The position numbers were made by a program, and so were the translations under genes. The notes under the pieces are model-generated. The model was not told the DNA's origin. It was given only the letters and a program-made list of their open reading frames with translations, and did not search any database. From contig JALVWV010000196.1 in the NCBI GenBank assembly GCA_027023145.1, forward strand, positions 1 through 36,676: 36,676 bases of DNA, read 5' to 3'. This document shows positions 5,201-34,592 of the stretch, piece after piece (within the stretch, counting starts at the first letter, position 1; each line of letters opens with the position of its first letter). The DNA is from Campylobacteraceae bacterium. GTDB taxonomy: Bacteria; Campylobacterota; Campylobacteria; Campylobacterales; Sulfurovaceae.

Positions 5201-5287
5201 TTTTGTTTTTCCTCCGCACCCTGTGACGTTTGCCATCCCTGCTATCAGCAGTATTGCCATGCTGCACTTTTTGATGATGTTTTTCAT
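2273..5287 (-). CDS. large surface lipoprotein: lipobox, one cadherin-like domain, then about 18 ELWxxDGT repeats (beta-propeller-type)
   Basis: 1004-aa ORF. Signal peptide and lipobox (LIAGMANVTGCGG). Cadherin-like segment (ATDEDGDTLTYTLSGTDSGKLSIDSGGKVTF). Recurrent G.ELW.SDGT..GT units spaced about 45 aa apart. Confidence 0.85.
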   Translation of the reverse strand: MKNIIKKCSMAILLIAGMANVTGCGGKTKPPTDTNTTNLHAPVFDSDVHEKTIDEGKTDAITLHATDEDGDTLTYTLSGTDSGKLSIDSGGKVTFDTSPMYKDQTDYAFTVHVSDGNHTIARDVTLHIRQWTLFFKYAADHGVEPWLTDGTQSHTRLLKDINLNGYDALPYDNSARRSRLTIGTVLYFAASDNVHGEELWKTDGTGAGTCMIKDIHPGTSGSAIKLMTEYNGKLYFVANDGTHGQELWVSDGTESGTHLVHEIETGDGNSWIDEMTVANGILFFSASNTTVGNELFRWDGTVMSIVTIINPGTEGSYPEHLTPMNGWLYFSADDGTHGCELWKTDGSGVNTQMVYDIDPSGSNGSYPSELTVMNNVLYFTADDGINGSELWRSNGTPGGTYGVKYIHPGSAGSRPEHLTVMGNAIYFAADDGTHGVELWKSDGTSAGTVMVADIKAGSGSSYPSDLVALGSSMLYFIANDGTRGKEVWQSNGTVGNADLVEDIRPGADGSYPHALHVYSNVLYFAASDDAHGEELYQSYGASALTQIVREIAPDVQDAQIDRLIERGGRLYFGANNHEDGRQLWTTDGSASGTDQARLSEGTGSSRHRFYLSDMARDILKITDRYYFNADDGISGRELWTSDGTEAGTHMVKDIRSGYESSNPQKLTALNGHCYFIANDGIHGNELWVSDGTEAGTHMVKDIRSGIDGGFGSHWANHILVPYYGKLYFSADDGSHGEELWVSDGTEAGTHMVKDILSGSQSSFWQNGDLLRVYQDKIYFVADDGTHGEELWVSDGTESGTRLFKDIQNGASSSYPDNLMVTDNALYFTAMDSAHGHELWKSDGSEAGTTMVKDIRSGTGASYPDHLTAMGDTLYFAANDDTHGKELWKSDGSESGTTMVKDIVLGADGSWPDGFFAWEGHLYFGADDSIHGYEPWISDGTAAGTHMIKDIYPGTDGSLGWGTRPATANHTVLFPAFINETEAHAWITDGTESGTHDMIDWNPTP

Positions 5288-5372
5288 CGTAGTCTCCTTT
5301 TTTCGGGTTTGGTATCAAACCTTTTTCCATACTATACTCTCCCATTGTGACGCGAGAGTGACGTTTGGAAAA

Positions 5373-5407
5373 AGTGAGAAGTGAGAGGTGAGAAGTGAGA
5401 AGTGAAA
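5373..5407 (+). repeat. tandem heptamer array AGTGAGA x5
   Basis: Units read directly: agtgaga agtgaga ggtgaga agtgaga agtgaaa, followed by ttgg. Confidence 0.9.
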
Positions 5408-5420
5408 TTGGATGGTGGGT

Positions 5421-5497
5421 GGGGACGCGACTTCAGTCGCGTAGTTGGTTGATAGTGGATGGTGGATGGCGAGAAGGGGCTGGGACTTCAGTCCCAC
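5421..5497 (+). repeat. two CTTCAG-core hairpin modules (GGGGACGCGACTTCAGTCGCGT and AAGGGGCTGGGACTTCAGTCCCAC)
   Basis: Stems are at 5425-5442 and 5482-5495. The same modules with the same flanks recur at 6991-7012, 26667-26710, 15465-15485, 21044-21066, 30863-30885 and 34268-34290. Confidence 0.9.
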
Positions 5498-5601
5498 ATA
5501 GAGAAGTAGAGATTGAAGTCCTCGAAATATCGCTATGTCACTATCTCCTCAGACGCCCATCCCCATCGGGGATGGTGGGGATGAAGATAGAAGATGAAAG
5601 G

Positions 5602-6831
5602 TCAATCCTTGATACAGCGGACAGGTTTTCCATGAGCACGGTAGCCATTGGTATATGCAGATGCATCTACAGAAGCAATACCTATATATGCTCCTCCAGT
5701 ACCCCCATCCTCATGCAACAACCACATACCACCCCACGTACCCTGACGATAAAGGGCAGCAGTATTTCCAACTCGATAACCTGCCGAAGGCAGCTTCAGG
5801 AAAGAGTTAAAAGCATTGACCCTTCGGTCGTCATCGTTGCCGGGTTTTTGTGTACTGTTTTTGTCAATCTGCGCACTATCGTCGTCAAGCAACTCCGCTT
5901 TCATCTCATCAAGAGTCGCTACCCGGAAGCCGACCGGACAGACAAACGAACCGTCGGTCTTGGACCAGTTGGCGATCCGTTGGCTGCCGTTGGCATCCAA
6001 GCTATCAATTACCCAGTCACGACGAGAACTGTTGTCATCTGTGATAAAGTTGCCGTGTTCCACAAAGGCAATATCGGTTGCCAGCGTAGCGGTAGTGCCG
6101 CTGAGTGGATCCTCGTGCCCGTCGAAGTTGCGACCCCATTGGTAATAATCCCCATAACAGGCCACATCGTTGTACGCCGTGCAGACGCGGGCAGCTCCGA
6201 GGTTGCGATCGAGGAAGATCTTGCCGGTGTAGGGGGACTTGACGGCTCCATACGTGGTGCCGTTGGCGGTGATACTGAATGCCGTCACCGTAACGGTACG
6301 GGTAACACTTGCACTGTTGCCAGCACTATCAGTAGCGGTATAGGTGAGGGTATAGGTTCCCGGTGTATCGGTATCGACATTACCACTGACGGTGACGGTG
6401 ATATTTTCATCCACATCATCCGTGGCCGTCGCTCCCGGATCGGTAAAGGTCTCGAACTGAACAAGACTCATGATTGTATCCCCGGTGAGAGAGACGGTCG
6501 GAGCTGTCGTATCGGCCACAGCGGTGACGGTAACTTTCCGGGTCTTGGTAGCGGTGTTCCCGGCTGCATCGGTGGCGCTATAGGTGAGGGTATAGGTTCC
6601 GACCGTACTCGTATCTACACTGCCGCTCACGCTCACCGTGACATTGCCATCCACATCATCGACGGCCGTGGCACCTGGATCGGTAAAGGTTGCTCCCTGA
6701 GCGACACGCATAGTGGACGCACCGTTGAGGGTGATCACCGGAGCCGTCGTATCGGCTCCACTTCCACATGCCGTGATCAGCACGGCAACCATGGCCACTG
6801 TGAGCCATTGCATCCATTTGATGTTATGCAT
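5602..6831 (-). CDS. lipoprotein with two Ig-like (DUF5011-type) repeats and a C-terminal FISUMP (Fibrobacter succinogenes major paralogous) domain
   Basis: 409-aa ORF. Lipobox LITACGSG. Two ~100-aa repeats (APVITLNG...FTDPGATA.DDVDGN.TV.VSG.VDT...GTYTLTY.ATD.AGN). C-terminus has LDRNLGA...CYGDYYQWGR and CPVGFRVATLDEM. AGGAGG lies 5 nt upstream of the ATG. Confidence 0.8.
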   Translation of the reverse strand: MHNIKWMQWLTVAMVAVLITACGSGADTTAPVITLNGASTMRVAQGATFTDPGATAVDDVDGNVTVSVSGSVDTSTVGTYTLTYSATDAAGNTATKTRKVTVTAVADTTAPTVSLTGDTIMSLVQFETFTDPGATATDDVDENITVTVSGNVDTDTPGTYTLTYTATDSAGNSASVTRTVTVTAFSITANGTTYGAVKSPYTGKIFLDRNLGAARVCTAYNDVACYGDYYQWGRNFDGHEDPLSGTTATLATDIAFVEHGNFITDDNSSRRDWVIDSLDANGSQRIANWSKTDGSFVCPVGFRVATLDEMKAELLDDDSAQIDKNSTQKPGNDDDRRVNAFNSFLKLPSAGYRVGNTAALYRQGTWGGMWLLHEDGGTGGAYIGIASVDASAYTNGYRAHGKPVRCIKD

Positions 6832-6986
6832 GATAGCCTCCTTTTTGTTTCAGATACTGATATGATACCATATCTTTATGGCAAAAAAATGTCAAATAGA
6901 GAAAAAGGTGAAAAGTGTGCGAAGAAAATTACTCGACAACCATTTTGTGGTAATTTTTGATTGGCAATTTTTAATGGATCATTGGT

Positions 6987-9900: not shown

Positions 9901-11103
9901 TCAATAAAAATACCCCATTGGCAGAGCCACACACTTCTCGTTAATATGTAGCACGTTTTTTCCCATATAAAAGACGATACCCAAAACATCTTTCGATGAT
10001 TTCTTTTGATACTCCACAATATGCCTAAAGTCATCTTTGCTCACTCTGGTTGAAGATTTTACCTCAACAGCTATCATTCTATTTTGACGCTCCAAGATAA
10101 AATCTATCTCTTTTTTATCATTGGTGAGGTAGTGGTAGATTTTGGTATCATCTATAGCAAAACTACAATGTTTGAGCAACTCATTAAAGACAAAAGTTTC
10201 TACCAGTGCCCCTTTATACCGAGAGTTTTCAAATGCTTCTATGGAGTAGATGCCCAAGAAATAACTCATCAGCCCTGTGTCGTTTAGAAATATCTTTGGT
10301 GACTTGACAAACTGCTTTCCGATGTTTTCAAAAAAAGGTCGCAATGTATGGAGCTGAAAAGTCTGCTCCAAAATGACCAGATAGTTTTCACAAGTCTCTA
10401 TTCGTACTCCTACCTCTTTGGCTAGTTTTGATTTATTGAGCAAAGAGGTGCTCCGTGGAGCAATGATATTGACAAAACGATAAAAGCTGTCTATATCTCT
10501 AAACTCCCCCAAATTACGGGCATCACGCTCTATGTAAGTGCTCACATAAGAGGAAAACCAAAGTTTTTTCTCCAGTGGAGTTTTTAAATTTTGCACATCA
10601 GGATAGCCACCCTTTAAGATAGACTCTACCACACTATTGGTCTCTACCTCAGTAGTGCTAAAGTCATGGACAAAGAGTTTATCTACTATGTTTTCATTCG
10701 GTTTTTTCGTCTTCTCTTTTGCGCTCAATGGGTACAAGTCTATCTCTATAATACGACCTGCCAATGTATCCTTGGCCTGTTTCATATCTAAAATATTAGC
10801 AGAGCCTGTCAGCAAAAAATCCCCATTATTTCGTTTTTTATCCACGTATGTTTTGATGGCTTCTAAGAGCTCTGGTACCTTTTGTATCTCATCAATGGTA
10901 GCAGGCTTTGGTAGTGCTTCCACAAATCGTACAGGGTCATCTTTGGCATTAACGCGTGTAGAGACATCATCTAAGACAACATAATTTTTTCGTATCTCCA
11001 TAGCCAATGTCGACTTGCCCACCTGCCGTGCACCTTTGAGCAACACAACAGGAGAAATCTTAAGTGCCGTCTCCAAGATAGGTACAATGCTTCTTTTTAG
11101 CAT
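9901..11103 (-). CDS. AAA+ ATPase of the AAA_14/DUF4143 (COG1373) type with a PD-(D/E)xK-like C-terminal motif
   Basis: The ORF track starts at TTG 11109; I prefer the ATG at 11103 (MLKRSIV...). Walker A GARQVGKST and Walker B-like ATIDEIQ. C-terminal EIDFILE...IAVEVKSS. The gene is visibly AT-rich compared with its neighbours. Confidence 0.75.
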   Translation of the reverse strand: MLKRSIVPILETALKISPVVLLKGARQVGKSTLAMEIRKNYVVLDDVSTRVNAKDDPVRFVEALPKPATIDEIQKVPELLEAIKTYVDKKRNNGDFLLTGSANILDMKQAKDTLAGRIIEIDLYPLSAKEKTKKPNENIVDKLFVHDFSTTEVETNSVVESILKGGYPDVQNLKTPLEKKLWFSSYVSTYIERDARNLGEFRDIDSFYRFVNIIAPRSTSLLNKSKLAKEVGVRIETCENYLVILEQTFQLHTLRPFFENIGKQFVKSPKIFLNDTGLMSYFLGIYSIEAFENSRYKGALVETFVFNELLKHCSFAIDDTKIYHYLTNDKKEIDFILERQNRMIAVEVKSSTRVSKDDFRHIVEYQKKSSKDVLGIVFYMGKNVLHINEKCVALPMGYFY

Positions 11104-11224
11104 AATCAATGCCTTATTGGATTTGTATTTTGTAAATTATACTATTATAATAGTTAAAATTATGCTATCTTGGCAATATTTTTAGAGATTTTGTGGATTT
11201 TCTGTTTATGTATGTTTTTTCCCT

Positions 11225-11250
11225 CGTTCCGCATCTCCTGATGCGGAATG
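11225..11250 (-). repeat. AGGA-loop hairpin module (minus strand: GGTATG-CATTCCGCATC-AGGA-GATGCGGAACG-AG)
   Basis: 11-bp stem including one G-T pair, with a 4-nt loop. The flanks match copies at 16041-16074 and 26755-26788. It sits at the junction of the AT-rich ATPase gene and higA. Confidence 0.85.
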
Positions 11251-11319
11251 CATACCAAACTGCTGACAACCCAAAACCTCCTGGAGATACGAAAACACGA
11301 AGCAAGGAATCCTGCCGTT

Positions 11320-11622
11320 TTATGCCACCTCTTCAGCAGCGTGAATCGTCTCGAAAACGCTCCGTTTCTTTTTGGCAACGTTGTAGAGGTCGTAGCTGTT
11401 CTGGAGGTTGAGCCAGAGTTCGGGGGAAGTGCCGAAATATTTTGAGAGCCTCAGTGCCATTTCGACGGTGATGCCTCTTTTTTGATTGACCAGTTCATTG
11501 ATCGCGCGAAACGATGTGTGAAGTGCATCTGCCAGTTTGGTCTGCGTGATACCCATGGGGATCAAAAACTCCTCTTTGAGGATTTCTCCGGGATGGGTGG
11601 GTGCTCGCTGTAACTCTATCAT
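11320..11622 (-). CDS. higA: HigA-family antitoxin (XRE helix-turn-helix)
   Basis: 100-aa ORF with HPGEILKEEFL, ITQTKLADAL, ALRLSKYFGTSPELWLNLQ. AGGAGAG RBS. Located 17 nt downstream of higB. Confidence 0.9.
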   Translation of the reverse strand: MIELQRAPTHPGEILKEEFLIPMGITQTKLADALHTSFRAINELVNQKRGITVEMALRLSKYFGTSPELWLNLQNSYDLYNVAKKKRSVFETIHAAEEVA

Positions 11623-11639
11623 GGTCTCTCCTTCTACTT

Positions 11640-11921
11640 TCAGTGATAATCCACTATCTTGACATCATAAGCATGGTTGTCTTCAAATCTGAAAATCACC
11701 CTGAATTGCTTGTTGACCCGTATGGAATAGTATCCTTTCAAGTCGCCTTTCAGCCCCTCGAGTCTGTTGGCCGGAGGGATTTTCAGGTCATTCAGATCAC
11801 GGGCATTGTTCAAATAGTCCAATTTTCGCAATGCTACTTTTTGGATATCCGGAGGCAGTGTCCTGCTCCTCCCTGTGGTATAAAATGCTTTACACGCTTT
11901 GTCCTGAAAACTTTTGATCAT
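11640..11921 (-). CDS. higB: HigB toxin (RelE/ParE superfamily, plasmid maintenance system killer type)
   Basis: 93-aa ORF with IKSFQDKA.KAFY, LKIPPANRLEGLKGDLKGYYSIRVNKQFRVIFRFE, and ending VDYH. Toxin-first order is typical of higBA. Confidence 0.9.
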   Translation of the reverse strand: MIKSFQDKACKAFYTTGRSRTLPPDIQKVALRKLDYLNNARDLNDLKIPPANRLEGLKGDLKGYYSIRVNKQFRVIFRFEDNHAYDVKIVDYH

Positions 11922-11923
11922 AT

Positions 11924-11944
11924 AACACTATAACATATAGTGTT
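11924..11944. promoter_or_regulatory. perfect 9-bp inverted repeat AACACTATA-ACA-TATAGTGTT overlapping the putative higB -10; candidate HigBA operator
   Basis: Read directly, 3 nt upstream of the higB ATG. Type II TA operons are commonly autoregulated through palindromic operators. Confidence 0.5.
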
Positions 11945-15393: not shown

Positions 15394-15428
15394 GAATTAG
15401 GAATTAGGAATGAGGAATTAGGAATGTT
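15394..15428 (+). repeat. tandem heptamer array GAATTAG x5, starting at the first base after the hisB stop
   Basis: gaattag gaattag gaatgag gaattag gaatgtt, then ggtatgcg. Confidence 0.9.
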
Positions 15429-15433
15429 GGTAT

Positions 15434-15453
15434 GCGTTGCTTTGCAACGCTTT
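15434..15453 (+). terminator. intrinsic terminator-like hairpin GCGTTGC-TTT-GCAACGC plus TTT (repeat module)
   Basis: 7-bp GC-rich stem, 3-nt loop and T-run, downstream of hisB. The same module occurs at six other sites. Confidence 0.6.
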
Positions 15454-15556
15454 CAATTAAATAGGGGGTGGGACTTCAGTCCCACAAACATTGTTCGCGA
15501 TGTATTGTGCAGTGTGCGCCATTGTATATTGTTGCAAACCCCATACAGGAGAACTC

Positions 15557-20130: not shown

Positions 20131-21007
<877 letters not shown>

Positions 21008-21014
21008 TTGGTAT

Positions 21015-21035
21015 GCATTGCTTCGCAATGTTTTT
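21015..21035 (+). terminator. terminator-like hairpin CATTGC-TTC-GCAATG plus TTTTT (variant of the GCGTTGC module)
   Basis: Downstream of fabI, in the same position within the cassette as at the other loci. Confidence 0.55.
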
Positions 21036-21089
21036 ATATGAAAAGGGGTTGGGACTTCAGTCCCATAAACATCGCTTGCGATGTATCGT

Positions 21090-21111
21090 GTAGGGTGCGC
21101 AATTGCGCACC
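21090..21111 (+). repeat. GTAG-headed palindrome GTAGGGTGCGCAATTGCGCACC (REP-like)
   Basis: Perfect 18-bp palindrome GGTGCGCAATTGCGCACC preceded by GTAG. Confidence 0.9.
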
Positions 21112-21127
21112 TTCCAACGGTATTTCT

Positions 21128-21205
21128 CCGGAAGCGGAGACTTCAGTCCCGCCAAAAGGTCAAACAACACAGCAACCTTAGGGTGAGGCTGAAGCCTTCA
21201 CTTCC
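21128..21205 (-). mobile_element. 78-bp TIR-bounded MITE/REPIN-like element, copy 1 (inverted relative to copies 2 and 3)
   Basis: The reverse complement aligns along its full length with 26806-26884 and 32810-32887. The arms GGAAGTGAAGGCTTCAGCCTCACC and CCGGAAGCGGAGACTTCAGTCCCGCC are inverted repeats of each other. Confidence 0.7.
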
Positions 21206-21228
21206 AGATAAATCGCGTTGCGATTTTT

Positions 21229-21249
21229 GTGTGCTGTTGCACACCCTAC
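21229..21249 (-). repeat. GTAG-headed palindrome on the minus strand (GTAGGGTGTGCAACAGCACAC)
   Basis: Reverse complement of gtgtgctgttgcacaccctac. The adjacent AATCGCGTTGCGATT hairpin (21211-21225) matches the module order seen at 30909-30947 and 34501-34539. Confidence 0.85.
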
Positions 21250-21263
21250 ACGGGTATGACTCA

Positions 21264-21438
21264 ATGAATAATGAAAAATGAAAAATGAATAATGAATAAT
21301 GAAAGATGAAAGATGAAAGATGAAAGATGAAAGATGAAAAATGAAAGATGAAAAATGAAAGATGAAAAATGAAAGATGAAAAATGAAAAATGAATAATGA
21401 ATAATGAAAGATGAAAGATGAAAGATGAAAAATGAATG
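21264..21438 (+). repeat. 25-unit tandem heptamer array ATGAAAR/ATGAATA; the last unit contains the TrmH-family start codon
   Basis: I counted 24 complete units over 21264-21431 (168 bp): ata aaa aaa ata ata aag x5 aaa aag aaa aag aaa aag aaa aaa ata ata aag x3 aaa. Unit 25 is ATGAATG at 21432. Confidence 0.95.
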
Positions 21439-22193
21439 AAAAAAAAGACTCCGAAGCGTACCTCGCCAAAAAAGCCTTCTTCGATAAAGTGCTGACCCTC
21501 TATGGTCGTCATGCGGTGATGGAGGCTCTTTTGGATGAGGCTTTGACGATCCATAAGCTCCATCTCTCCACTTCTAACAAACCCTCTGACGAGATCGATC
21601 GGATGGTTCAGATCGCCGATGCGCGGGGGATTCCTGTTGCACACCACGACAAGCAGGCGCTTTCGCGCATCTCCCGAAATGCCAGACAAGATCAGGGGGT
21701 GGCACTGGATGTGGTGATGGATCATTTTGTGGATGAGGCGGAGTTTTTAAAGCAGGAGCGTTATCGGATTATCGCTCTTGACGGCGTGACCAATCCGCAG
21801 AATCTGGGGATGATTATCCGCTCGTGTGCGGCGGGGCGGGTCGATGCACTGCTGCTGCCGACCAGAGGCAATGCCCAGATTTCTCCACTGGTGATTCAGG
21901 CGAGTGCCGGGACGCTTTTTCGCCTGCCGATTATCAAAACCTCCGATCTTGTTGCTTCGCTGGAGCGCTTTAGAGAGCAGGGCGCAAGGGTGTATGCTCT
22001 CGAAGCCGATGCTCCTCTTGATTATCGTGAAGTGCCAGTTGAGGGGAAAAATATCTTTGTCCTCGGCAATGAATCAGAAGGGATCTCCCCGGCAGTCTCC
22101 CGTACCTGCAATGCTGCCATTGCCATCCCCATGGCACGCGGCGTCGAATCGCTCAACGTCGCCGTGACCGCTTCGCTTTTGGCCTTTTGTTAG
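21432..22193 (+). CDS. TrmH/SpoU-family RNA 2-prime-O-methyltransferase (RlmB-like)
   Basis: 253-aa ORF with LYGRHAVMEAL, ALDGVTNPQNLGMIIRS, VLGNESEGIS, GVESLNVAV. The ATG at 21432 is the first in-frame ATG after a TGA and is itself the 25th unit of the upstream heptamer array. Confidence 0.85.
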   Translation: MNEKKDSEAYLAKKAFFDKVLTLYGRHAVMEALLDEALTIHKLHLSTSNKPSDEIDRMVQIADARGIPVAHHDKQALSRISRNARQDQGVALDVVMDHFVDEAEFLKQERYRIIALDGVTNPQNLGMIIRSCAAGRVDALLLPTRGNAQISPLVIQASAGTLFRLPIIKTSDLVASLERFREQGARVYALEADAPLDYREVPVEGKNIFVLGNESEGISPAVSRTCNAAIAIPMARGVESLNVAVTASLLAFC

Positions 22194-22620: not shown

Positions 22621-22641
22621 GGGTTACGTGTTACGTTTTGG
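22600..22641 (+). repeat. heptamer array GTGTTGC GGGTTGC GGGTTAG GGGTTAC GTGTTAC GTTTTGG spanning the stop of the yqaA-like gene
   Basis: Read directly. The stop codon TAG (22618-22620) lies inside unit 3. Confidence 0.9.
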
Positions 22642-22675
22642 TATGGGGTTTAAACATCGCAACGTGATGTATCAC

Positions 22676-24299: not shown

Positions 24300-24305
24300 A
24301 TCAAT

Positions 24306-24326
24306 AAAAGCGTTGCTGCGCAACGC
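24306..24326 (-). terminator. intrinsic terminator of ychF (minus strand GCGTTGC-GCA-GCAACGC plus TTTTATT)
   Basis: 7-bp stem at 24310-24326 with an A-run at 24306-24309 on the plus strand. It is the same module as at the plus-strand loci. Confidence 0.65.
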
Positions 24327-24332
24327 AACCAA

Positions 24333-24367
24333 AACTCCTAATTCCTAATTCCTCACTCCTAATTCAC
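24333..24367 (-). repeat. heptamer array on the minus strand (GTGAATT AGGAGTG AGGAATT AGGAATT AGGAGTT), starting 2 nt after the ychF stop
   Basis: Reverse complement of aactcct aattcct aattcct cactcct aattcac. Confidence 0.9.
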
Positions 24368-24369
24368 AT

Positions 24370-25697: not shown

Positions 25698-25970
25698 ATG
25701 ACTATAAAAATAGATAACCCCGAAATAGAGCACTTCTTTATAAATGAATTCAAATCGGATATTAAACAATTTTCTGAATTTATTTTGATGAATCTTGAAA
25801 AATACAAAAAACAAAATGACTTCAATATTACTCCTCTTGATCCGCAGAAGAACTCTTATAAATTAGAATTTGACGATATTGAAGAGGTTGATGAAAGTGC
25901 CAATCCCTTTAAAGATATTGATGATGTAGCTACATATGCTCGAAGATTACGAGAAAATGCATGGCGATAG
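25698..25970 (+). CDS. putative antitoxin partner of the downstream PIN toxin (family not recognised)
   Basis: 90-aa acidic ORF with an AAGGAG RBS. It overlaps the PIN gene by 10 nt. The DNA is AT-rich. The call rests on context only. Confidence 0.55.
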   Translation: MTIKIDNPEIEHFFINEFKSDIKQFSEFILMNLEKYKKQNDFNITPLDPQKNSYKLEFDDIEEVDESANPFKDIDDVATYARRLRENAWR

Positions 25971-26335
25971 TTTTTGTAGATACCAATATTGTGATTGACT
26001 ATCTCAAAAAGAGAGACAATGAGGCTCTTATAGAGTTTGTTGACAGCTTTGATACCGTGTATATCAATGATGTTGTCATTATGGAACTTTATCAGGGAGC
26101 CAGGGATAAGAGAGAGTTAAACTATATTAAAAAAAAGATAATGAAATTTGAAGTTTTGAAAATGAATCAGGAGATCATATCTTTGGCAAGAGAAATTTTA
26201 GATCGTTATACCTTGTCTCACAATACCAAAATAATGGATGCACTTATTGCCTCAACTGTCATTATGTACAATATGGATTTATACACTTTCAACAAAAAAG
26301 ACTTTAGATATCTAAAACAGGTTAAACTAATTTAA
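25961..26335 (+). CDS. vapC: PIN-domain ribonuclease toxin, VapC-like
   Basis: 124-aa ORF. Acidic PIN residues in the expected contexts: FVDTNIVIDYL, MELYQG, MDALIAST, TFNKKDF. Confidence 0.85.
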   Translation: MAIVFVDTNIVIDYLKKRDNEALIEFVDSFDTVYINDVVIMELYQGARDKRELNYIKKKIMKFEVLKMNQEIISLAREILDRYTLSHNTKIMDALIASTVIMYNMDLYTFNKKDFRYLKQVKLI

Positions 26336-26351
26336 AAAGAAGGAATACACC

Positions 26352-26666
26352 ATGCGTTTTTTTACCTGGATTATTATGGGGATACTGGGAATAGCGGCTT
26401 TGAGCGGTTGTGCCCCAAAGGGAGAGCAGGTGATGATCCAAAATGCTAAAAGCTCGGATTATGCGACAGGATACGGTGATGGGTGTGAGAGTGGACGAGC
26501 CGACGCGGGGTCTGTGACGTCTATGGCGCAGAAAGATGGGGAAAAATATCAAAACAATTCCCAATACAAAGAGGGGTGGGATACCGGGTTCAGGGAGTGC
26601 AAGTTTCGAGAGCTGCAAGTCTCAAAACTCTCAAAAAGAGACCCCAAAAAACCGGTACGTTTCTAA
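26352..26666 (+). CDS. small lipoprotein, function unknown
   Basis: 104-aa ORF. Lipobox IAALSGCA. Internal GYGDGCESG / YKEGWDTGFRECK motifs. Followed by a hairpin and T-run. Confidence 0.6.
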   Translation: MRFFTWIIMGILGIAALSGCAPKGEQVMIQNAKSSDYATGYGDGCESGRADAGSVTSMAQKDGEKYQNNSQYKEGWDTGFRECKFRELQVSKLSKRDPKKPVRF

Positions 26667-26786: not shown

Positions 26787-26805
26787 AGACAATGCGATTT
26801 ATTTT

Positions 26806-26884
26806 GGAAGTGAAGGCTTCAGCCTCACCTTGAGGTTGCTATGTTATTTGACCTTTTGGGCGGGACTGAAGTCTCCGCTTCCGG
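26806..26884 (+). mobile_element. 78-bp TIR-bounded MITE/REPIN-like element, copy 2
   Basis: Aligns with 32810-32887 and with the reverse complement of 21128-21205. Confidence 0.7.
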
Positions 26885-26898
26885 GAAAATCGGTGGAA

Positions 26899-30297: not shown

Positions 30298-30774
30298 ATG
30301 AAAACCATCGAAGGAAATTTGAGCGTCGATCGCTCCAAAAAAGTTGCCATCATCAGTGCACGATTCAACCACTTTATCACCGACCGTCTCGTCGAGGGAG
30401 CCAAAGATGCCTACGCCCGCCATGGTGGGCAAGCAGAGGATCTCGATTTGATCCTCGTTCCCGGAGCGTTTGAGATCCCTTTTGCTCTGGACAAGGCGTT
30501 TGCATCCGGTAAGTACGATGCCGTCTGTTGTCTTGGAGCCGTGATCCGGGGGGCGACACCGCATTTTGATTATGTCTCAGCCGAAGCGACCAAAGGGGTA
30601 GCCAATGTCACCCTCAAACATGGCAAGCCTGCTTCGTTTGGTGTCCTCACAGTCGACAGCATTGAGCAAGCCATCGAGCGTGCCGGGACAAAAGCGGGCA
30701 ACAAAGGAGCTGAAGCGATGACGGGATTGATCGAGATGATCAATCTGTATGAGGAATTAGGAGTGAGGAATTAG
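30298..30774 (+). CDS. ribH: 6,7-dimethyl-8-ribityllumazine synthase
   Basis: 158-aa ORF with [43 protein letters not shown]. The last 7 codons and the stop lie in an AGGAATT heptamer array. Confidence 0.95.
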
Positions 30775-30779
30775 GAATT
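30752..30779 (+). repeat. heptamer array AGGAATT AGGAGTG AGGAATT AGGAATT spanning the ribH 3-prime end and stop
   Basis: Read directly. TAG 30772-30774 straddles the junction of units 3 and 4. The array is followed by TTGG. Confidence 0.9.
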
Positions 30780-30786
30780 TTGGTAT

Positions 30787-30807
30787 GCGTTGCTTTGCAA
30801 CGCTTTT
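30787..30807 (+). terminator. intrinsic terminator-like hairpin GCGTTGC-TTT-GCAACGC plus TTTT after ribH
   Basis: Identical to the hisB copy. Confidence 0.65.
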
Positions 30808-30810
30808 ATT

Positions 30811-30832
30811 GTAGGGTTGGCTTCAGCCGACC
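30811..30832 (+). repeat. GTAG-headed hairpin GTAGGGTTGGCTTCAGCCGACC
   Basis: 7-bp stem including one G-T pair, with a TTCA loop. A second copy lies at 34411-34432. Confidence 0.85.
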
Positions 30833-30908
30833 AAAAATGGCACGAACGCATAGAGATCAAACAGGGGCTGGGACTTCAGTCCCACAAACATCGTTTGCGA
30901 TGTATCGT

Positions 30909-31001
30909 GTAGGGTGGGCAACAGCACACCAAAATCACATCGTGATTGTCAAAATGTTCCTGTAATTCAATCGTTGGAAGGTGCGCAATTGCGCACCCTA
31001 C
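30909..31001. repeat. inverted doublet of GTAG-headed palindromes (30909-30930 on the plus strand; 30980-31001 on the minus strand) with an internal AATCACATCGTGATT hairpin
   Basis: GTAGGGTGGGCAACAGCACACC and, on the minus strand, GTAGGGTGCGCAATTGCGCACC, with a 49-bp spacer. Confidence 0.85.
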
Positions 31002-31040: not shown

Positions 31041-31433
31041 ATGGCCACACGCCGTCAAGCTCGTACCGCTGTCATCGGTCTGCTCTATGCCTACGATCTG
31101 GGCAATGCTAACATCGCACAATTCAGCGACGACATCCTCGAAGAGGGGAAGATCCGGAACAAACAGCGGGAATTTTCCCAAGGGTTGTTCAGGGGTACCA
31201 TCGAGCATCTTGATGAGATTGATGCTGAAATAACTAAACACCTCAAAGAGTGGGATATGGATGGCATCGGCAAGGTCGAAAAGGCGATCCTGCGTCTGGG
31301 CACGTATGAGATCCTCATCGCCGGTACCGATCGCCCCATCATCATCAACGAAGCAGTCGAGCTGGCCAAAGAGCTTGCCGACGACCGGTCGCCGCAGTTT
31401 ATCAATGGGGTTTTGGATGCGGTTGGGAAATGA
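31041..31433 (+). CDS. nusB: transcription antitermination factor NusB
   Basis: The ORF track starts at 30981 inside repeat DNA; I prefer ATG 31041 (MATRRQARTAVIGLLYAYD), preceded by AAAGGA. Contains ILRLGTYEI and INEAVELAK. Confidence 0.9.
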   Translation: MATRRQARTAVIGLLYAYDLGNANIAQFSDDILEEGKIRNKQREFSQGLFRGTIEHLDEIDAEITKHLKEWDMDGIGKVEKAILRLGTYEILIAGTDRPIIINEAVELAKELADDRSPQFINGVLDAVGK

Positions 31434-31461
31434 GTGGGTAGTGGGTAGTGTGTAGTGGGTA
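31434..31461 (+). repeat. heptamer array GTGGGTA x4, starting at the first base after the nusB stop
   Basis: gtgggta gtgggta gtgtgta gtgggta. Confidence 0.9.
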
Positions 31462-31516
31462 GAAATTTATGGTGTTTGGATTGTTGTGGATCTGGTCGCA
31501 GTTGTACTCATCAGGA

Positions 31517-31607: not shown

Positions 31608-32702
31608 ATGAAAAAAACCGTTAAAAAGAGCTCTACCCGCTACCCGCTACCCGCTACCCGCTTGTCTATAAGCGAAGCGATAGACTTAATCGAACACGCC
31701 GACCTCAAAGAACTCGGACGTATGGCATATGCTCGCAAGCAGGAGCTTCACCCCAAAGGGGTTACCACTTTCGTTGTCGATCGCAACATCAACTACACCA
31801 ATATCTGTTGGGTGGACTGCAAATTCTGTGCGTTTTATACCCATGAGAAAAAAGAAGATGCTTATGTACTGAGCTTTGAGGAGATCGACGCCAAGATCGA
31901 TGAGCTCGTGGCCATCGGTGGGACGCAGATTCTCTTCCAGGGAGGGGTGCATCCCAAGCTGGAGATCGAGTGGTACGAAGATCTGGTGGAGCATATTCAT
32001 CAAAAGTATCCTGAAGTGACCATCCACGGTTTCTCAGCCATAGAGATCGACTATATTGCCCGCCGTTCTCACTTGAGCATTCGTGAAGTGCTCGAACGGC
32101 TCCAAGCCAAAGGACTCAGCTCGATCCCGGGAGCCGGAGCCGAGATCCTTAGCGACCGGGTACGCGATATCATCGCTCCGAACAAACTTGACACGGCTAC
32201 CTGGATCGATGTCCACCGCCAAGCCCACACAATCGGGATGAAATCGACCGCGACGATGATGTACGGCACCGTAGAGACGACCCGGGAGATCGTGGAGCAC
32301 TTCGATCACATCCGCCGCTTACAGGATGAGACGGGCGGGTTTCGGGCGTTTATCATGTGGAGTTACCAAAGCGACAACACCGAACTCAAACGCCAACTCC
32401 CCACTCTGAGCAAAACAAGTTCCAACTATTATCTTCGGTTATTGGCTGTGGCACGTCTCTTCCTTGATAATGTCCCCAATATCCAGAGCTCTTGGGTCAC
32501 TCAGGGAAGCTACATCGGTCAGATGGCACTCCGCTGGGGAGCCAATGACCTCGGCTCGACGATGATGGAAGAAAACGTCGTCTCCGCCGCCGGAGCCCAC
32601 AACCAAATGAATCAGGAAGAGATGATCCGCCTTATTGCTGACATCGGAGAGAAACCGGCTAAGCGTAATACGGCGTATGAGATTTTGGAGAGATATTATT
32701 GA
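31608..32702 (+). CDS. radical SAM enzyme of the futalosine (mqn) menaquinone pathway, MqnC/MqnE (CofH-like) family; C versus E cannot be told apart by eye
   Basis: 364-aa ORF. Cluster motif NICWVDCKFCAF, GGTQILFQGG, TATMMYG, GGFRAFIMWSYQ. Codons 9-18 are encoded by a CTACCCG heptamer array. Confidence 0.85.
   Translation: MKKTVKKSSTRYPLPATRLSISEAIDLIEHADLKELGRMAYARKQELHPKGVTTFVVDRNINYTNICWVDCKFCAFYTHEKKEDAYVLSFEEIDAKIDELVAIGGTQILFQGGVHPKLEIEWYEDLVEHIHQKYPEVTIHGFSAIEIDYIARRSHLSIREVLERLQAKGLSSIPGAGAEILSDRVRDIIAPNKLDTATWIDVHRQAHTIGMKSTATMMYGTVETTREIVEHFDHIRRLQDETGGFRAFIMWSYQSDNTELKRQLPTLSKTSSNYYLRLLAVARLFLDNVPNIQSSWVTQGSYIGQMALRWGANDLGSTMMEENVVSAAGAHNQMNQEEMIRLIADIGEKPAKRNTAYEILERYY
31633..31660 (+). 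repeat. heptamer array CTACCCG x4 inside the 5-prime end of the mqn-family CDS; it is the reverse complement of the GGGTAG-type array at 31434-31461
   Basis: ctacccg x4 read directly; it encodes S-T-R-Y-P-L-P-A-T-R. Confidence 0.9.
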
Positions 32703-32730
32703 AGTAGGAAGTAAGAAGTAGGAAGTAGGA
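32703..32730 (+). repeat. heptamer array AGTAGGA AGTAAGA AGTAGGA AGTAGGA, starting at the first base after the mqn-family stop
   Basis: Read directly; followed by ATTTTGG. Confidence 0.9.
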
Positions 32731-32740
32731 ATTTTGGTAT

Positions 32741-32761
32741 GCGTTGCTTGGCAACGCTTTT
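32741..32761 (+). terminator. intrinsic terminator-like hairpin GCGTTGC-TTG-GCAACGC plus TTTT
   Basis: Same module as at the other loci, with a different loop. Confidence 0.65.
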
Positions 32762-32786
32762 GTAGGTGTTGTCCTCTGACAACACC
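32762..32786 (+). repeat. GTAG-headed palindrome GTAGGTGTTGTCCTCTGACAACACC
   Basis: 9-bp stem GGTGTTGTC/GACAACACC with loop CTCT, followed by AAAATCAC as in other copies. Confidence 0.85.
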
Positions 32787-32809
32787 AAAATCACAAATGT
32801 ATTTTATTT

Positions 32810-32887
32810 GGAAGTGGAGGCTTCAGCCCCACCTTGAGGTCACCATGTTATTTGAGTGTTGGGCGGGACTGAAGTCTCCGCTTCCGG
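32810..32887 (+). mobile_element. 78-bp TIR-bounded MITE/REPIN-like element, copy 3
   Basis: Left arm GGAAGTGGAGGCTTCAGCCCCACC. The reverse complement of the right arm is GGAAGCGGAGACTTCAGTCCCGCC (20 of 24 identical). Confidence 0.7.
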
Positions 32888-32962
32888 AAAAGCTCCATCA
32901 AAAGGTGCGCAATTGAGCATTCTGCGGGGAAACAAATATAAAAACCACAAAAAGGAACAACC

Positions 32963-34204
32963 ATGCCAGCCACCCAAACCACCTTTCACCTCCACGGGGT
33001 TGAAATCCCCGTGATTTTTGAAGAGGAGCGGTATCTTCCGATTGTTTCATTGCAGTTGGTGTTTGAAGACAGCGGAGCACTCAGTGATCTCAATCCGGGT
33101 CAAGCGCGGATGACAGCGCGGCTACTGGGAGAAGGATCACGCAAGGCGGGTTCAGCGGCGTTTGCCGAGCGTCTGGAGTCCCGGGCGGTGAGCCTGAGTG
33201 CTCACGCAGGGCGGGAGACGATGGTGATCGAGCTGAGTGCGCTCAAGGAGAACTTCGGGTATGGAGCCGGGATGCTGGCCGAACTGCTGGCAGATCCCAA
33301 CTATTCTCCTGAAGCATTTGAAACCGTTCAGGCAAGCACGCTCGGTAAACTCACCCAGAAACAGAGTGACTACGATTATCTCGCGTCTGTCGGGCTCTCG
33401 CGCCTGCTCTTTGAAGGTACCGGGCTGTCTGAACCGATTGACGGGACGCTTGAGAGTGTGCGAATGATGGATCCGGAGGATTTGGTCTACCAATTCCGCA
33501 CCCATGTGGGCTTGAGCAACCTTACCATTGTCCTCGGAGGGGATCTGAGCTGGGAAGAGGCGCAAACGTATCTTCAGCAGGCGCTCACACCGCTCAAGCA
33601 AACATCCGTCGTCCCCATCGGTCATTTTACGGCGACCGATACCCCCCGGATCGATCGGGCGTTTGTCCAGACAGAACAGGCGTATATCTATTTTGGAGCG
33701 CCGCTGGATGTGGCGTACGATGGCGCAGAGACCCATCTGGCCAAAATCGCCGCGTTTGTGCTGGGCAGCAGCGGTTTTGGAAGCCGCCTCATGGAAGAAG
33801 TCCGGGTCAAGCGGGGACTGGCGTATTCTGCTTATGGGCATTTTGCCCTCAAACGCTCGGTGAGTTACTTCACCGGACATGTCCAGACCAAACTTGAGAG
33901 CGAAGAGGAAGCCATCGAAGTGATTGGCGAAGTGGTCTCCGAGTTTGTCAAGGACGGCATCACCGCCAAAGAGCTCGAAGGAGCCAAAGCCTTCCTCCTT
34001 GGGAGTGAGCCTTTGCGCACCGAGACCCTCTCTCAGCGTCTGGGGCGGGCGTTTGATGAGTATTATGCGCACAAACCTCTGGGTGAGAGTGCCCGTCAGC
34101 TGGAGCAGATCGAAGGGGTGAGCCTCGAGGAGATCAACGCGTTTATCCGGGAGCATGAGGAGATTGAGAAGCTTAGTTTTTATGTGGTAACAAGGGAGAA
34201 TTAG
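32963..34204 (+). CDS. M16 (pitrilysin) family peptidase-like protein lacking the HxxEH zinc motif (probably a non-catalytic subunit)
   Basis: 413-aa ORF with the two-domain M16 layout (R/Y pair region VRVKRGLAYSAYG). The position where HxxEH is expected reads ARMTARLLGEG. Confidence 0.75.
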   Translation: MPATQTTFHLHGVEIPVIFEEERYLPIVSLQLVFEDSGALSDLNPGQARMTARLLGEGSRKAGSAAFAERLESRAVSLSAHAGRETMVIELSALKENFGYGAGMLAELLADPNYSPEAFETVQASTLGKLTQKQSDYDYLASVGLSRLLFEGTGLSEPIDGTLESVRMMDPEDLVYQFRTHVGLSNLTIVLGGDLSWEEAQTYLQQALTPLKQTSVVPIGHFTATDTPRIDRAFVQTEQAYIYFGAPLDVAYDGAETHLAKIAAFVLGSSGFGSRLMEEVRVKRGLAYSAYGHFALKRSVSYFTGHVQTKLESEEEAIEVIGEVVSEFVKDGITAKELEGAKAFLLGSEPLRTETLSQRLGRAFDEYYAHKPLGESARQLEQIEGVSLEEINAFIREHEEIEKLSFYVVTREN

Positions 34205-34226
34205 GAGTTAGGAATTAGGAGTGAGG
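34199..34226 (+). repeat. heptamer array AATTAGG AGTTAGG AATTAGG AGTGAGG spanning the last codon and stop of the M16-like gene
   Basis: Read directly; followed by AATTTTGG. Confidence 0.9.
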
Positions 34227-34237
34227 AATTTTGGTGG

Positions 34238-34258
34238 GCGTTGCTCTGCAACGCTTTT
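34238..34258 (+). terminator. intrinsic terminator-like hairpin GCGTTGC-TCT-GCAACGC plus TTTT
   Basis: Same module; a duplicate lies at 34386-34406 with loop GTA. Confidence 0.65.
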
Positions 34259-34315
34259 ATTTGAAAAAGGGGCTGGGACTTTAGTCCCACAAACATCGCT
34301 TGCGATGTATCGCGT

Positions 34316-34408
34316 AGATTGAGAAGTTGAGTTTTTATGTGGTAACGCGGGAGAATTAGAGGTTAGAAATTAGAAGTTTTGGTGGGCGTTGCGTAGCAAC
34401 GCTTTTAT
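34316..34408 (+). repeat. non-coding duplicate of the M16-like gene tail plus heptamer array plus terminator hairpin (copy of 34161-34260, one heptamer shorter)
   Basis: agattgagaagttgagtttttatgtggtaacgcgggagaattaga... aligns with agattgagaagcttagtttttatgtggtaacaagggagaattagga... The offset is 155 bp. Confidence 0.85.
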
Positions 34409-34410
34409 CT

Positions 34411-34432
34411 GTAGGGTTGGCTTTAGCCGACC
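34411..34432 (+). repeat. GTAG-headed hairpin GTAGGGTTGGCTTTAGCCGACC
   Basis: Copy of 30811-30832 with one loop change. Confidence 0.85.
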
Positions 34433-34500
34433 ATATGGGGGATTTGATACGCTGCGCGTTTGGTTGGACTGAAGTCCAAGCCCCATGGAGAAGGGCTCGC

Positions 34501-34592
34501 GTAGGGTGTGCAATTGCACACCAAAATCGCAACGCGATTGTCAGAATGTCCCGGTAGTGTAACCATTGGAAGGTGCGCAATTGCGCACCTAC
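34501..34592. repeat. inverted doublet of GTAG-headed palindromes (34501-34522 on the plus strand; 34572-34592 on the minus strand) with an internal AATCGCAACGCGATT hairpin
   Basis: GTAGGGTGTGCAATTGCACACC and, on the minus strand, GTAGGTGCGCAATTGCGCACC, with a 49-bp spacer. The architecture matches 30909-31001. Confidence 0.85.

Follow-up and report, generated by a model that had tools for sequence, protein, structure and literature searches.

Among the long simple sequence repeats (SSRs) of prokaryotes, heptanucleotides have been given as the commonest class and attributed to slippage of the polymerase (Mrazek 2007, summarised in PMC4679880). In the outline provided there, prokaryotic heptanucleotide long SSRs (LSSRs) are head-to-tail runs of 7-nt units beyond chance, mostly intergenic and many per genome, and they differ by indels in 7-nt steps (Mrazek, Guo & Shah 2007, in PMC4679880). 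In this study, we analysed an array that shares these properties, consisting of 25 units of the ATGAAAR type at 21264-21438 (+) of a 36,676-nt stretch of DNA (contig JALVWV010000196.1), the whole of which is referred to below as the window. The source of the window is an uncultured Sulfurovaceae bacterium of hydrothermal vents, whose nearest public genomes are metagenome-assembled genomes (MAGs) labelled Nitratifractor sp., and the sequencing runs listed as containing the window sequence are vent metagenomes, with no RNA run among them. The array ends in the start codon of a gene for an RlmB-like methyltransferase. The sequence feature is real, and the comparisons reported here suggest that it is best explained as an extreme, self-insulating heptanucleotide SSR seeded by that start codon in a repeat-prone lineage.

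The TAACTGA repeats of marine Beggiatoaceae, some Cyanobacteria and Bacteroidetes (MacGregor 2015, PMC4679880) resemble the array in that they are forward arrays ending at or next to a start codon, place stop codons in each of the three frames, mostly have no ribosome-binding site and also precede housekeeping genes. They reach 43 copies in some genomes and, as here, strains differ by 7-nt indels. However, one TAACTGA unit is reused at about 170 loci per genome, whereas the units in the present genome differ by locus, that of the array being ATGAAAR. Furthermore, TAACTGA arrays stop at least 1 nt before the ATG, whereas here the ATG lies within a unit that appears to be gene-derived (PMC4679880 for TAACTGA). 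Thus orientation, position at the start, stops and the missing ribosome-binding site agree, and the reuse of the TAACTGA unit does not; with a unit of its own that is not shared between loci, the array falls outside the TAACTGA set.

The (ATCTTTC)n repeat of Haemophilus influenzae hmw1A and hmw2A is likewise a 7-nt SSR with double-digit, strain-variable copy numbers and lies between the promoter and the start codon (PMC12721329). There, the repeat and a G-rich arm pair into a long hairpin that RNase III cleaves, and the expression of the adhesin has been shown to fall with length. In the present case, the minimum-free-energy (MFE) fold gave no pairing partner for the array and the gene does not encode an adhesin; without a pairing arm, the array is not of the hmw type. 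The GGGNATC repeats of Xanthomonas and Nostoc and the STRR-type heptamers of cyanobacteria are, like the arrays here, spread genome-wide near stops and starts, preferentially at most 50 bp from stop or start codons and with 2-26 units (PMC4692102). GGGNATC repeats are G-rich, form quadruplexes and prefer 4 units, whereas ATGAAAR has no G tracts (PMC4692102). In the part of PMC4679880 that deals with uspA2 of Moraxella catarrhalis, a purine-rich SSR, (AGAT)n, is also placed in the leader (5' untranslated region), with 6-23 copies depending on the strain. That unit is a tetranucleotide, the product is a surface protein and the effect on expression was shown experimentally, whereas here a heptamer precedes a methyltransferase gene. 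No literature on heptamer repeats in Sulfurovum or Nitratifractor was found, and as far as the searched literature shows, this is the first description of such repeats in the vent Sulfurovaceae/Nitratifractor-like lineage. Rfam searches at the gathering score and, for 20900-21560, at E<=1 returned no credible family, the only matches being sub-threshold ones of miRNA models to a palindrome, and a tRNA/tmRNA search found none.

Structure of the array and the start of the methyltransferase gene

Parsing of 21264-21438 (+) gave 25 consecutive 7-nt units, namely five ATGAATA (T), eight ATGAAAA (A), eleven ATGAAAG (G) and one final ATGAATG (X), in the 5'-to-3' order T A A T T G G G G G A G A G A G A A T T G G G A X. 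TRF placed the same array at 21263-21436 (period 7, 24.9 copies, 91% matches, score 236). Both methods confirmed the 24 unbroken heptamers of three variants at 21264-21431 (+) that the initial annotation, made from the letters alone, had described. Its structural reading of the block-like variant order as a trace of unequal exchange also holds. The RNA of these units was predicted to be purine-rich and unstructured, and in the MFE fold the whole array was unpaired (z-score -1.0).

In the window, 12 period-7 array loci of at least 3 copies were found, against 0.05 expected from composition-matched shuffles, and the same scan found no array of period 8-12. All but one or two of these loci in 36.7 kb lie outside confident coding sequence. 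The ATGAAAR array had been called the longest of the window by far, and indeed the next-longest has 5.4 copies according to TRF. When an LSSR is taken as an unbroken head-to-tail series of a 5-11-nt unit that exceeds the length expected by chance, the array is a heptanucleotide LSSR with respect to its unbroken units beyond chance, its whole-unit length differences and the many, mainly intergenic arrays that accompany it.

Unit 25 (21432-21438, +) holds the start codon for the gene downstream (21432-22193, +), which encodes a 253-aa SpoU/TrmH 2'-O-methyltransferase. The product matched SpoU_sub_bind (PF08032, 6.7e-10) and SpoU_methylase (PF00588, 3.7e-34), in agreement with the TrmH family assigned to it from the sequence. 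The best TIGR match was TIGR00186 (equivalog of RlmB, the methyltransferase of 23S rRNA Gm2251) with 142 bits, under the cutoff of 160, although the Sulfurovum orthologues carry the name RlmB at NCBI and JGI; hence, "RlmB-like" appears to be the safe name. The codon at 21426-21428, in frame with the gene, is TGA. Alignment of 16 homologues showed that the N-terminus is conserved from D6/S7 on (KDSEAYLxKKAFFDKVLTxYGRHAVMEAL), and the sequence contains no further start codon between 21432 and this motif. Since the N-terminus is conserved from residue 6 and no other start precedes the motif, the ATG at 21432 is, on the alignment, the only usable start, as had been proposed. An alternative start, GTG at 21489, was ruled out by the conservation of residues 6-19 in the homologues.

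All 24 upstream ATGs open mini-open reading frames (mini-ORFs) that close after 4-5 codons (MKDER, MKNEK, MNNE and similar), which bears out the start/stop pairs noted earlier in all frames, and each of their stops overlaps a further ATG. The last odd-numbered mini-ORF, MKDEK of unit 23 (21418-21435, +), ends in a TGA (21433-21435) that overlaps the true ATG at 21432 as ATGA. Because the unit contains ATGA and its length of 7 nt is not divisible by 3, every upstream ATG closes in 4-5 codons and the protein is immune to the gain or loss of units. On the minus strand, the repeat has no stop codon, and this accounts for two ORFs running through it, 21143-21469 (-) (108 aa) and 21261-21725 (-) (154 aa), with products of the type FIFHLSSFIFH... 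We rejected both as repeat artefacts; gene callers may nevertheless report them.

Directly after unit 25, an A8 homopolymer lies inside codons 3-5 (21439-21446, +). Its extension to A9 would bring the out-of-frame ATG at 21436 into frame (MKKKDS...), making it a second potential slippage site at the 5' end. The tract is also present in a relative with 96% protein identity.

Origin of the repeat unit

The conserved protein begins with ATG-AAA-GAC (M-K-D). In relatives with 79-89% protein identity, three heptamers were found in front of this start: ATGAAAA ATGAAAG ATAAAAC ATGAAAGAC in the 89% relative (P0002; L084/L085), ATGAAAC ATAAAAG ATGAAAC ATGAAAGAC in the 84% relative (P0007), where it is identical in four independent assemblies, and ATAAAAC ATAAAAG ATGAAAC ATGAAAGAC in the 79% relative (P0008). 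In six relatives, such proto-units adjoined the conserved start ATGAAAGAC without a gap and in the same register. Three other relatives, L001, L002 and the lineage of P0003, have decayed unit remnants together with a new ATGCCC start. Because the relatives carry three proto-units ending in the conserved start, the reading that we favour is that the ATGAAAG unit corresponds to the first 7 nt of the gene itself and was expanded in the window lineage, and that the 3-unit proto-array would predate the clade. This identity of the unit was one of two points missing from the initial annotation; the other was the genome-wide habit of forming heptamer arrays, described below.

A contig with 96% protein and 92% DNA identity (L083) begins inside an array whose last units are T G G A X, and the N-terminus, MNEKKDS, is the same as in the window. 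The presence of an array with variant units in this strain indicates that the expansion with three variants predates the split of the two. Orthologous arrays in relatives are a few substitutions apart, which fits concerted evolution.

Length differences between assemblies

In a 24.5-kb ENA scaffold (L081), which encodes an identical protein and shows 6 substitutions relative to the window over 6.8 kb (99.9% identical), the array, T A A T T G G G A X, has 10 units instead of 25. The window array contains an internal 55-bp direct repeat, with copies at 21271-21325 (+) (units 2-8 plus 6 nt) and 21376-21430 (+) (units 17-23 plus 6 nt), and dropping 105 bp (15 units) anywhere between them recreates the L081 array exactly. 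The difference could thus be the signature of a single slippage or recombination event, and a de Bruijn collapse with k<=55 would look alike. In L083, two G units precede A X (T G G A X) instead of the three of the window (T G G G A X), and this one-unit difference, which comes from a k141 contig, is less likely an artefact.

Unitigs of a vent-metagenome run (X1) that contains the same strain (depth about 16, about the gene depth) matched the run of G units, the alternating A/G core and the junction G-A-A-T-T-G-G-G-A with 0 mismatches. The 25-unit form is real. Public contigs aligned to the window at 99% likeness showed no joints, and the unitigs (k=31) are too short to separate the 10-unit from the 25-unit allele. 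The array certainly exists, and its exact copy number alone is uncertain. The copy number probably varies. A change in copy number, raised by the initial annotation as a possibility, is therefore supported by public assemblies in two cases, 25 versus 10 units (L081, a possible collapse) and three versus two G units (L083).

Proposed course of the expansion

We consider it rather probable that the array is a gene-start-seeded heptanucleotide SSR that was hyper-expanded by slippage and unequal exchange and is tolerated through self-insulation. According to this model, a 3-unit proto-array ending in the start codon would have been present in the ancestor of the vent Sulfurovaceae ("Nitratifractor"-labelled) clade. 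In the window lineage, it would then have grown to at least 25 units through slipped-strand mispairing and unequal exchange between multi-unit blocks, and it may still gain and lose whole units. The lineage would be permissive to repeats: intergenic period-7 arrays and dispersed palindromic modules are abundant in it, and canonical mismatch repair is lacking in Epsilonproteobacteria, which are without MutL/MutH and other mismatch-repair genes (PMC2147049). The expansion would be tolerated because the unit insulates itself, only the last ATG reading into the protein. If so, the locus would show a microsatellite born from a gene's own start codon and grown to 175 bp with the protein unharmed, and its main interest would lie in the clean evolutionary series from 3 to 25 units together with the lineage-wide heptamer habit.

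Several observations weigh against this model. ATGAAAR arrays occur at many other loci of the same vent metagenomes, some of them attached to the same palindromic modules that precede the array here. In a related contig (L172), AATGAAA x5 serves as the post-stop array of a hairpin element, so that import with a dispersed element is possible. The persistence of the array with variant units across lineages of 92% DNA identity could mean selection rather than neutrality. As to length, the 10-unit form contains no 31-mer absent from the 25-unit form, and an assembler with k<=55 would collapse the 55-bp repeat; the largest length difference, 25 versus 10 units, may therefore be an assembly artefact.

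Heptamer arrays as a habit of the lineage

Per 10 kb, the window has 3.3 period-7 arrays, against 1.6 for the closest MAG loci and 0.26 for a set of 76 Sulfurovum-type loci. The arrays sit after stops and before starts, beside dispersed hairpin modules. At 8 window sites, the layout is a stop codon, 3-5 heptamers and a TTTTGG-hairpin module, the units varying by site, and 8 of the 12 window arrays directly adjoin this dispersed module. These results indicate that heptamer arrays are a lineage-wide habit, which weakens any gene-specific regulatory reading of the ATGAAAR array. They also document, for an uncultured Campylobacterota lineage of vents, a strong tendency to form heptamer repeats, of which there had been no previous report.

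The recurrent 3'-end module was found at 15394-15467, 20971-21048, 22621-22660, 24302-24369 (-), 30743-30820, 32697-32774, 34194-34271 and 34342-34419. Its order is 3-5 heptamers, TTTTGGTAT, the hairpin GCGTTGC-nnn-GCAACGC, a T run and further palindromes (GGGACTTCAGTCCC and others), and its heptamer units are GAATTAG, AGGAATT, GAAGTAG, GTTACGT and TTAGGAG. At the post-fabI site in relatives, the unit varies (AGGAATT, AGAAATT, AGTGAAT, GATGGTK) and the hairpin is conserved. In the vent metagenomes, the mosaic pieces reach a word depth 100 to 1000 times that of the genes on either side, and contigs from short reads are broken at these places. In practice, such arrays break short-read assemblies, give long spurious reverse-strand ORFs and may mislead the calling of start codons.

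Arrays of the (ATGAAAR)>=4 type are widespread in metagenome contigs of 21-68% GC and thus among unrelated organisms. Among the matches listed, they have mostly 4-8 and at most 17 units, and about 9% (about 1 in 11) abut a long ORF. This distribution shows that the ATGAAAR unit as such is not lineage-specific and that duplication of a start heptamer recurs elsewhere. On the reverse strand of L172, a related contig of 56% GC, positions 1199-1365 read stop, AATGAAA x5, TTTCGGTTT, the hairpin GCGTTGC-GCG-GCAACGC and CTCAACR x5, the last directly preceding the Shine-Dalgarno (SD) motif and start codon, ATG, of the gene that follows. Within the clade, identical heptamer types are reused at different loci.

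The repeat mosaic between fabI and the array

Upstream of the array lies fabI (20152-20970, +), encoding enoyl-ACP reductase (NCBIfam NF006266, 467 bits, over the cutoff; Pfam adh_short_C2). The 290 bp between it and the array (20971-21262) are made up of repeat modules with further copies, direct and inverted, elsewhere in the window (families D5 and D8; inverted pairs I1-I7), which substantiates the placing of the array at the downstream end of a repeat mosaic. The post-stop module at 20971-21048 (+), of family D5 with 6 window copies, comprises AGGAATT x3.6 (20980-21004), TTTTGGTAT, the hairpin GCATTGC-TTC-GCAATG (21015-21031) and a T run; the 7-bp hairpin and the T run look like an intrinsic terminator. 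It is followed by a palindromic module of GGGACTTCAGTCCC, CATCGCTTGCGATG and GGGTGCGCAATTGCGCACC at 21041-21111 (+) (family D8, 4 window copies), a dispersed element at 21096-21212 (+), which is found inverted at 26805-26890 and 32803-32919 (inverted repeats I1, I2 and I6), and a palindromic module of AATCGCGTTGCGATT and GTGTGCTGTTGCACAC at 21211-21252 (+), which is found inverted at 30906-30947 and 34498-34539 (inverted repeats I4 and I5). What sets the ATGAAAR array apart from the other window arrays is its copy number (25 versus at most 5.4) and its place at the gene-proximal end of the mosaic, and it is a member of none of the dispersed repeat families of the window. An origin of the arrays as target-site duplications was not supported, the two sides of the mosaic carrying different units (AGGAATT and ATGAAAR).

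Possible effects on expression

As the initial annotation had pointed out, the T units create -10-like AATAAT hexamers, which lie at 21393-21398 and 21400-21405, 27-39 nt before the start. In a consensus scan, the units themselves gave three sigma-70-like matches of the form ATGAAA-18 nt-AATAAT, of which the proximal one (21376-21405, +) ends 26 nt before the start and the others lie at 21369-21398 (+) and 21271-21300 (+). No SD motif was found before 21432, whereas most neighbouring genes have one (21 of 37 crude gene calls).

The proximal block T-T-G-G-G-A-X, present in the window and L081 (T-G-G-A-X in L083), might provide a promoter and a short, A-rich, unstructured leader without an SD motif. 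It would supply the -10-like AATAAT at a near-constant distance from the start. The distal units would then lie upstream of or at the promoter, where even big length changes should be nearly neutral, and the length of the array would influence a dispensable housekeeping gene modestly at most and in a graded way. In E. coli, RlmB is not essential, so that the constraint on its expression would be relaxed. A regulatory role of the array, through promoter spacing or translation initiation as the initial annotation had speculated, is possible but unsupported. If length did tune expression, the locus would be a rare case of SSR control over a ribosome-modifying housekeeping gene.

Alternative explanations

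The array might instead be a contingency or rheostat locus like that of H. influenzae hmw, transcribed or spanning the promoter, in which the unit number tunes or switches RlmB-like expression within populations. The differences in unit number between near-identical assemblies and between strains, the promoter-like -35/-10 pairs formed by the units, the conservation of the array across about 8% DNA divergence and its position abutting and including the start codon are all consistent with such a role. So are the (CTCAACG)2-5 arrays in the 5' coding part of the same gene in six Sulfurovum loci, where a one-unit change would shift the frame, and the precedents of hmw (ATCTTTC)n, in which longer means lower expression (PMC12721329), and of the AGAT repeats of uspA2, as far as PMC4679880 outlines them. 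However, the gene encodes an rRNA methyltransferase and not a surface structure, an adhesin or a restriction-modification protein, as is usual for this class; the same genome has heptamer arrays by many unrelated genes and after stops; the leader folds into no hmw-type hairpin; and the proximal block bearing the -10-like motif is conserved, the observed length difference being distal to it. We therefore regard a contingency locus as unlikely. A translational device, in which an unstructured A-rich leader recruits ribosomes by S1-type binding in place of an SD motif and the overlapping mini-ORF chain (ATGA, TAATG) relays them to the true AUG, would fit the 24 of 24 upstream ATGs whose short ORFs stop over a further ATG, including that of unit 23 over ATG 21432, as well as the RNA without predicted structure or SD motif. 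It would also recall the TAACTGA arrays of Beggiatoaceae, which end by starts without ribosome-binding sites and have been proposed as S1/Csp/CsrA sites (PMC4679880). Such a device would require transcription of the whole array, and since reinitiation is inefficient, a relay of 12 steps would lose most ribosomes; moreover, relatives manage with 3 units, and the different units of the arrays of this genome argue against a single sequence-specific binder. This explanation thus seems improbable.

That the array was imported as the terminal heptamer array of a dispersed palindromic mosaic element and resembles the gene start by chance is suggested by the hairpin module adjoining 8 of the 12 window arrays, by the ATGAAAR arrays joined to such modules at other metagenome loci and by AATGAAA x5 in L172. 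We give it little credence: the proto-units are contiguous and in register with the conserved ATGAAAGAC start in six relatives, the array belongs to no dispersed family of the window, and here it precedes the gene and not the hairpin module. An assembly artefact in the array or its length is very improbable; short-read assemblies do break within the array (L082, L083 and contig pieces) and two assemblies differ in its length, but three independent assemblies and the unitigs of several runs concur on both junctions and on the internal variant order. More speculatively, the array could be a self-built expression module, whose multiplied start heptamer would give the promoter hexamers (ATGAAA-18-AATAAT), an SD-free leader and an ATGA mini-ORF chain passing ribosomes to the true AUG, with active generation of 7-nt units linked to palindromic elements or 23S_rRNA_IVP genes instead of plain slippage. 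Such a process might lie behind the heptamer arrays that border palindromic mosaic modules and 23S_rRNA_IVP (Avd-like) gene cassettes, in some cases as inverted pairs. We consider this whole reading doubtful. If it were true, the gain or loss of units would be a heritable, graded control of an rRNA-modifying enzyme, and hence of ribosome properties, in vent populations.

Heptamer arrays at the same gene in Sulfurovum-type genomes

In six Sulfurovum-type genomes, (CTCAACG)2-5 encodes an N-terminal extension (S-Q-R-S-T-L-N-A-Q-R-S) of the same rlmB-like gene, at L010 2969-2996, L036 1233-1246, L038 2976-2996, L070 2975-3002, L076 2963-2990 and L079 2592-2626, and a change of one unit would shift the reading frame. 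The 5' end of the rlmB-like gene is accordingly a recurrent site of heptamer arrays across the family. In L079, a 23S_rRNA_IVP gene (2224-2589; PF05635, four-helix-bundle, Avd-like) lies between fabI and rlmB with the CTCAACG array directly after its stop, and in L010 (about 2800-2996) and L036 (about 1070-1255) a remnant 23S_rRNA_IVP gene lies between inverted arrays of the CTCAACG heptamer. The 23S_rRNA_IVP region looks like a cassette bounded by heptamer arrays.

Other features of the window

Two further arrays, at 31433-31462 (GTGGGTA x4.3, after nusB) and 31631-31662 (CTACCCG x4.6), are near reverse complements bracketing the spacer between nusB and a CofH/MqnC-type radical-SAM gene. The CTACCCG array lies between the ATG at 31608 and the in-frame TTG at 31662 of that gene, and is either within its first 18 codons or directly before its real start. 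The first ~45 codons of the ORF at 5395-6960, which has no Pfam match, are intergenic mosaic (5372-5530; AAGTGAG x5, a GATGGTG array and GGGACTTCAGTCCC palindromes), and its true start must be further downstream than called.

A 1004-aa ORF at 2273-5287 (-) contains about 15 diverged 144-nt (48-aa) repeats and gave weak beta-propeller-type matches (DUF5050, DUF5980) and a bacterial Ig domain, Big_9; it probably encodes a large secreted or surface repeat protein. In the regions 9901-11933 and 25698-26666, a low-GC stretch (38-43%, against 52% for the window) carries an AAA_14/DUF4143 ATPase and an HTH_3 protein, and a PIN-domain gene at 25961-26335, with its small upstream partner, looks like a toxin-antitoxin pair; both are probably accessory DNA.

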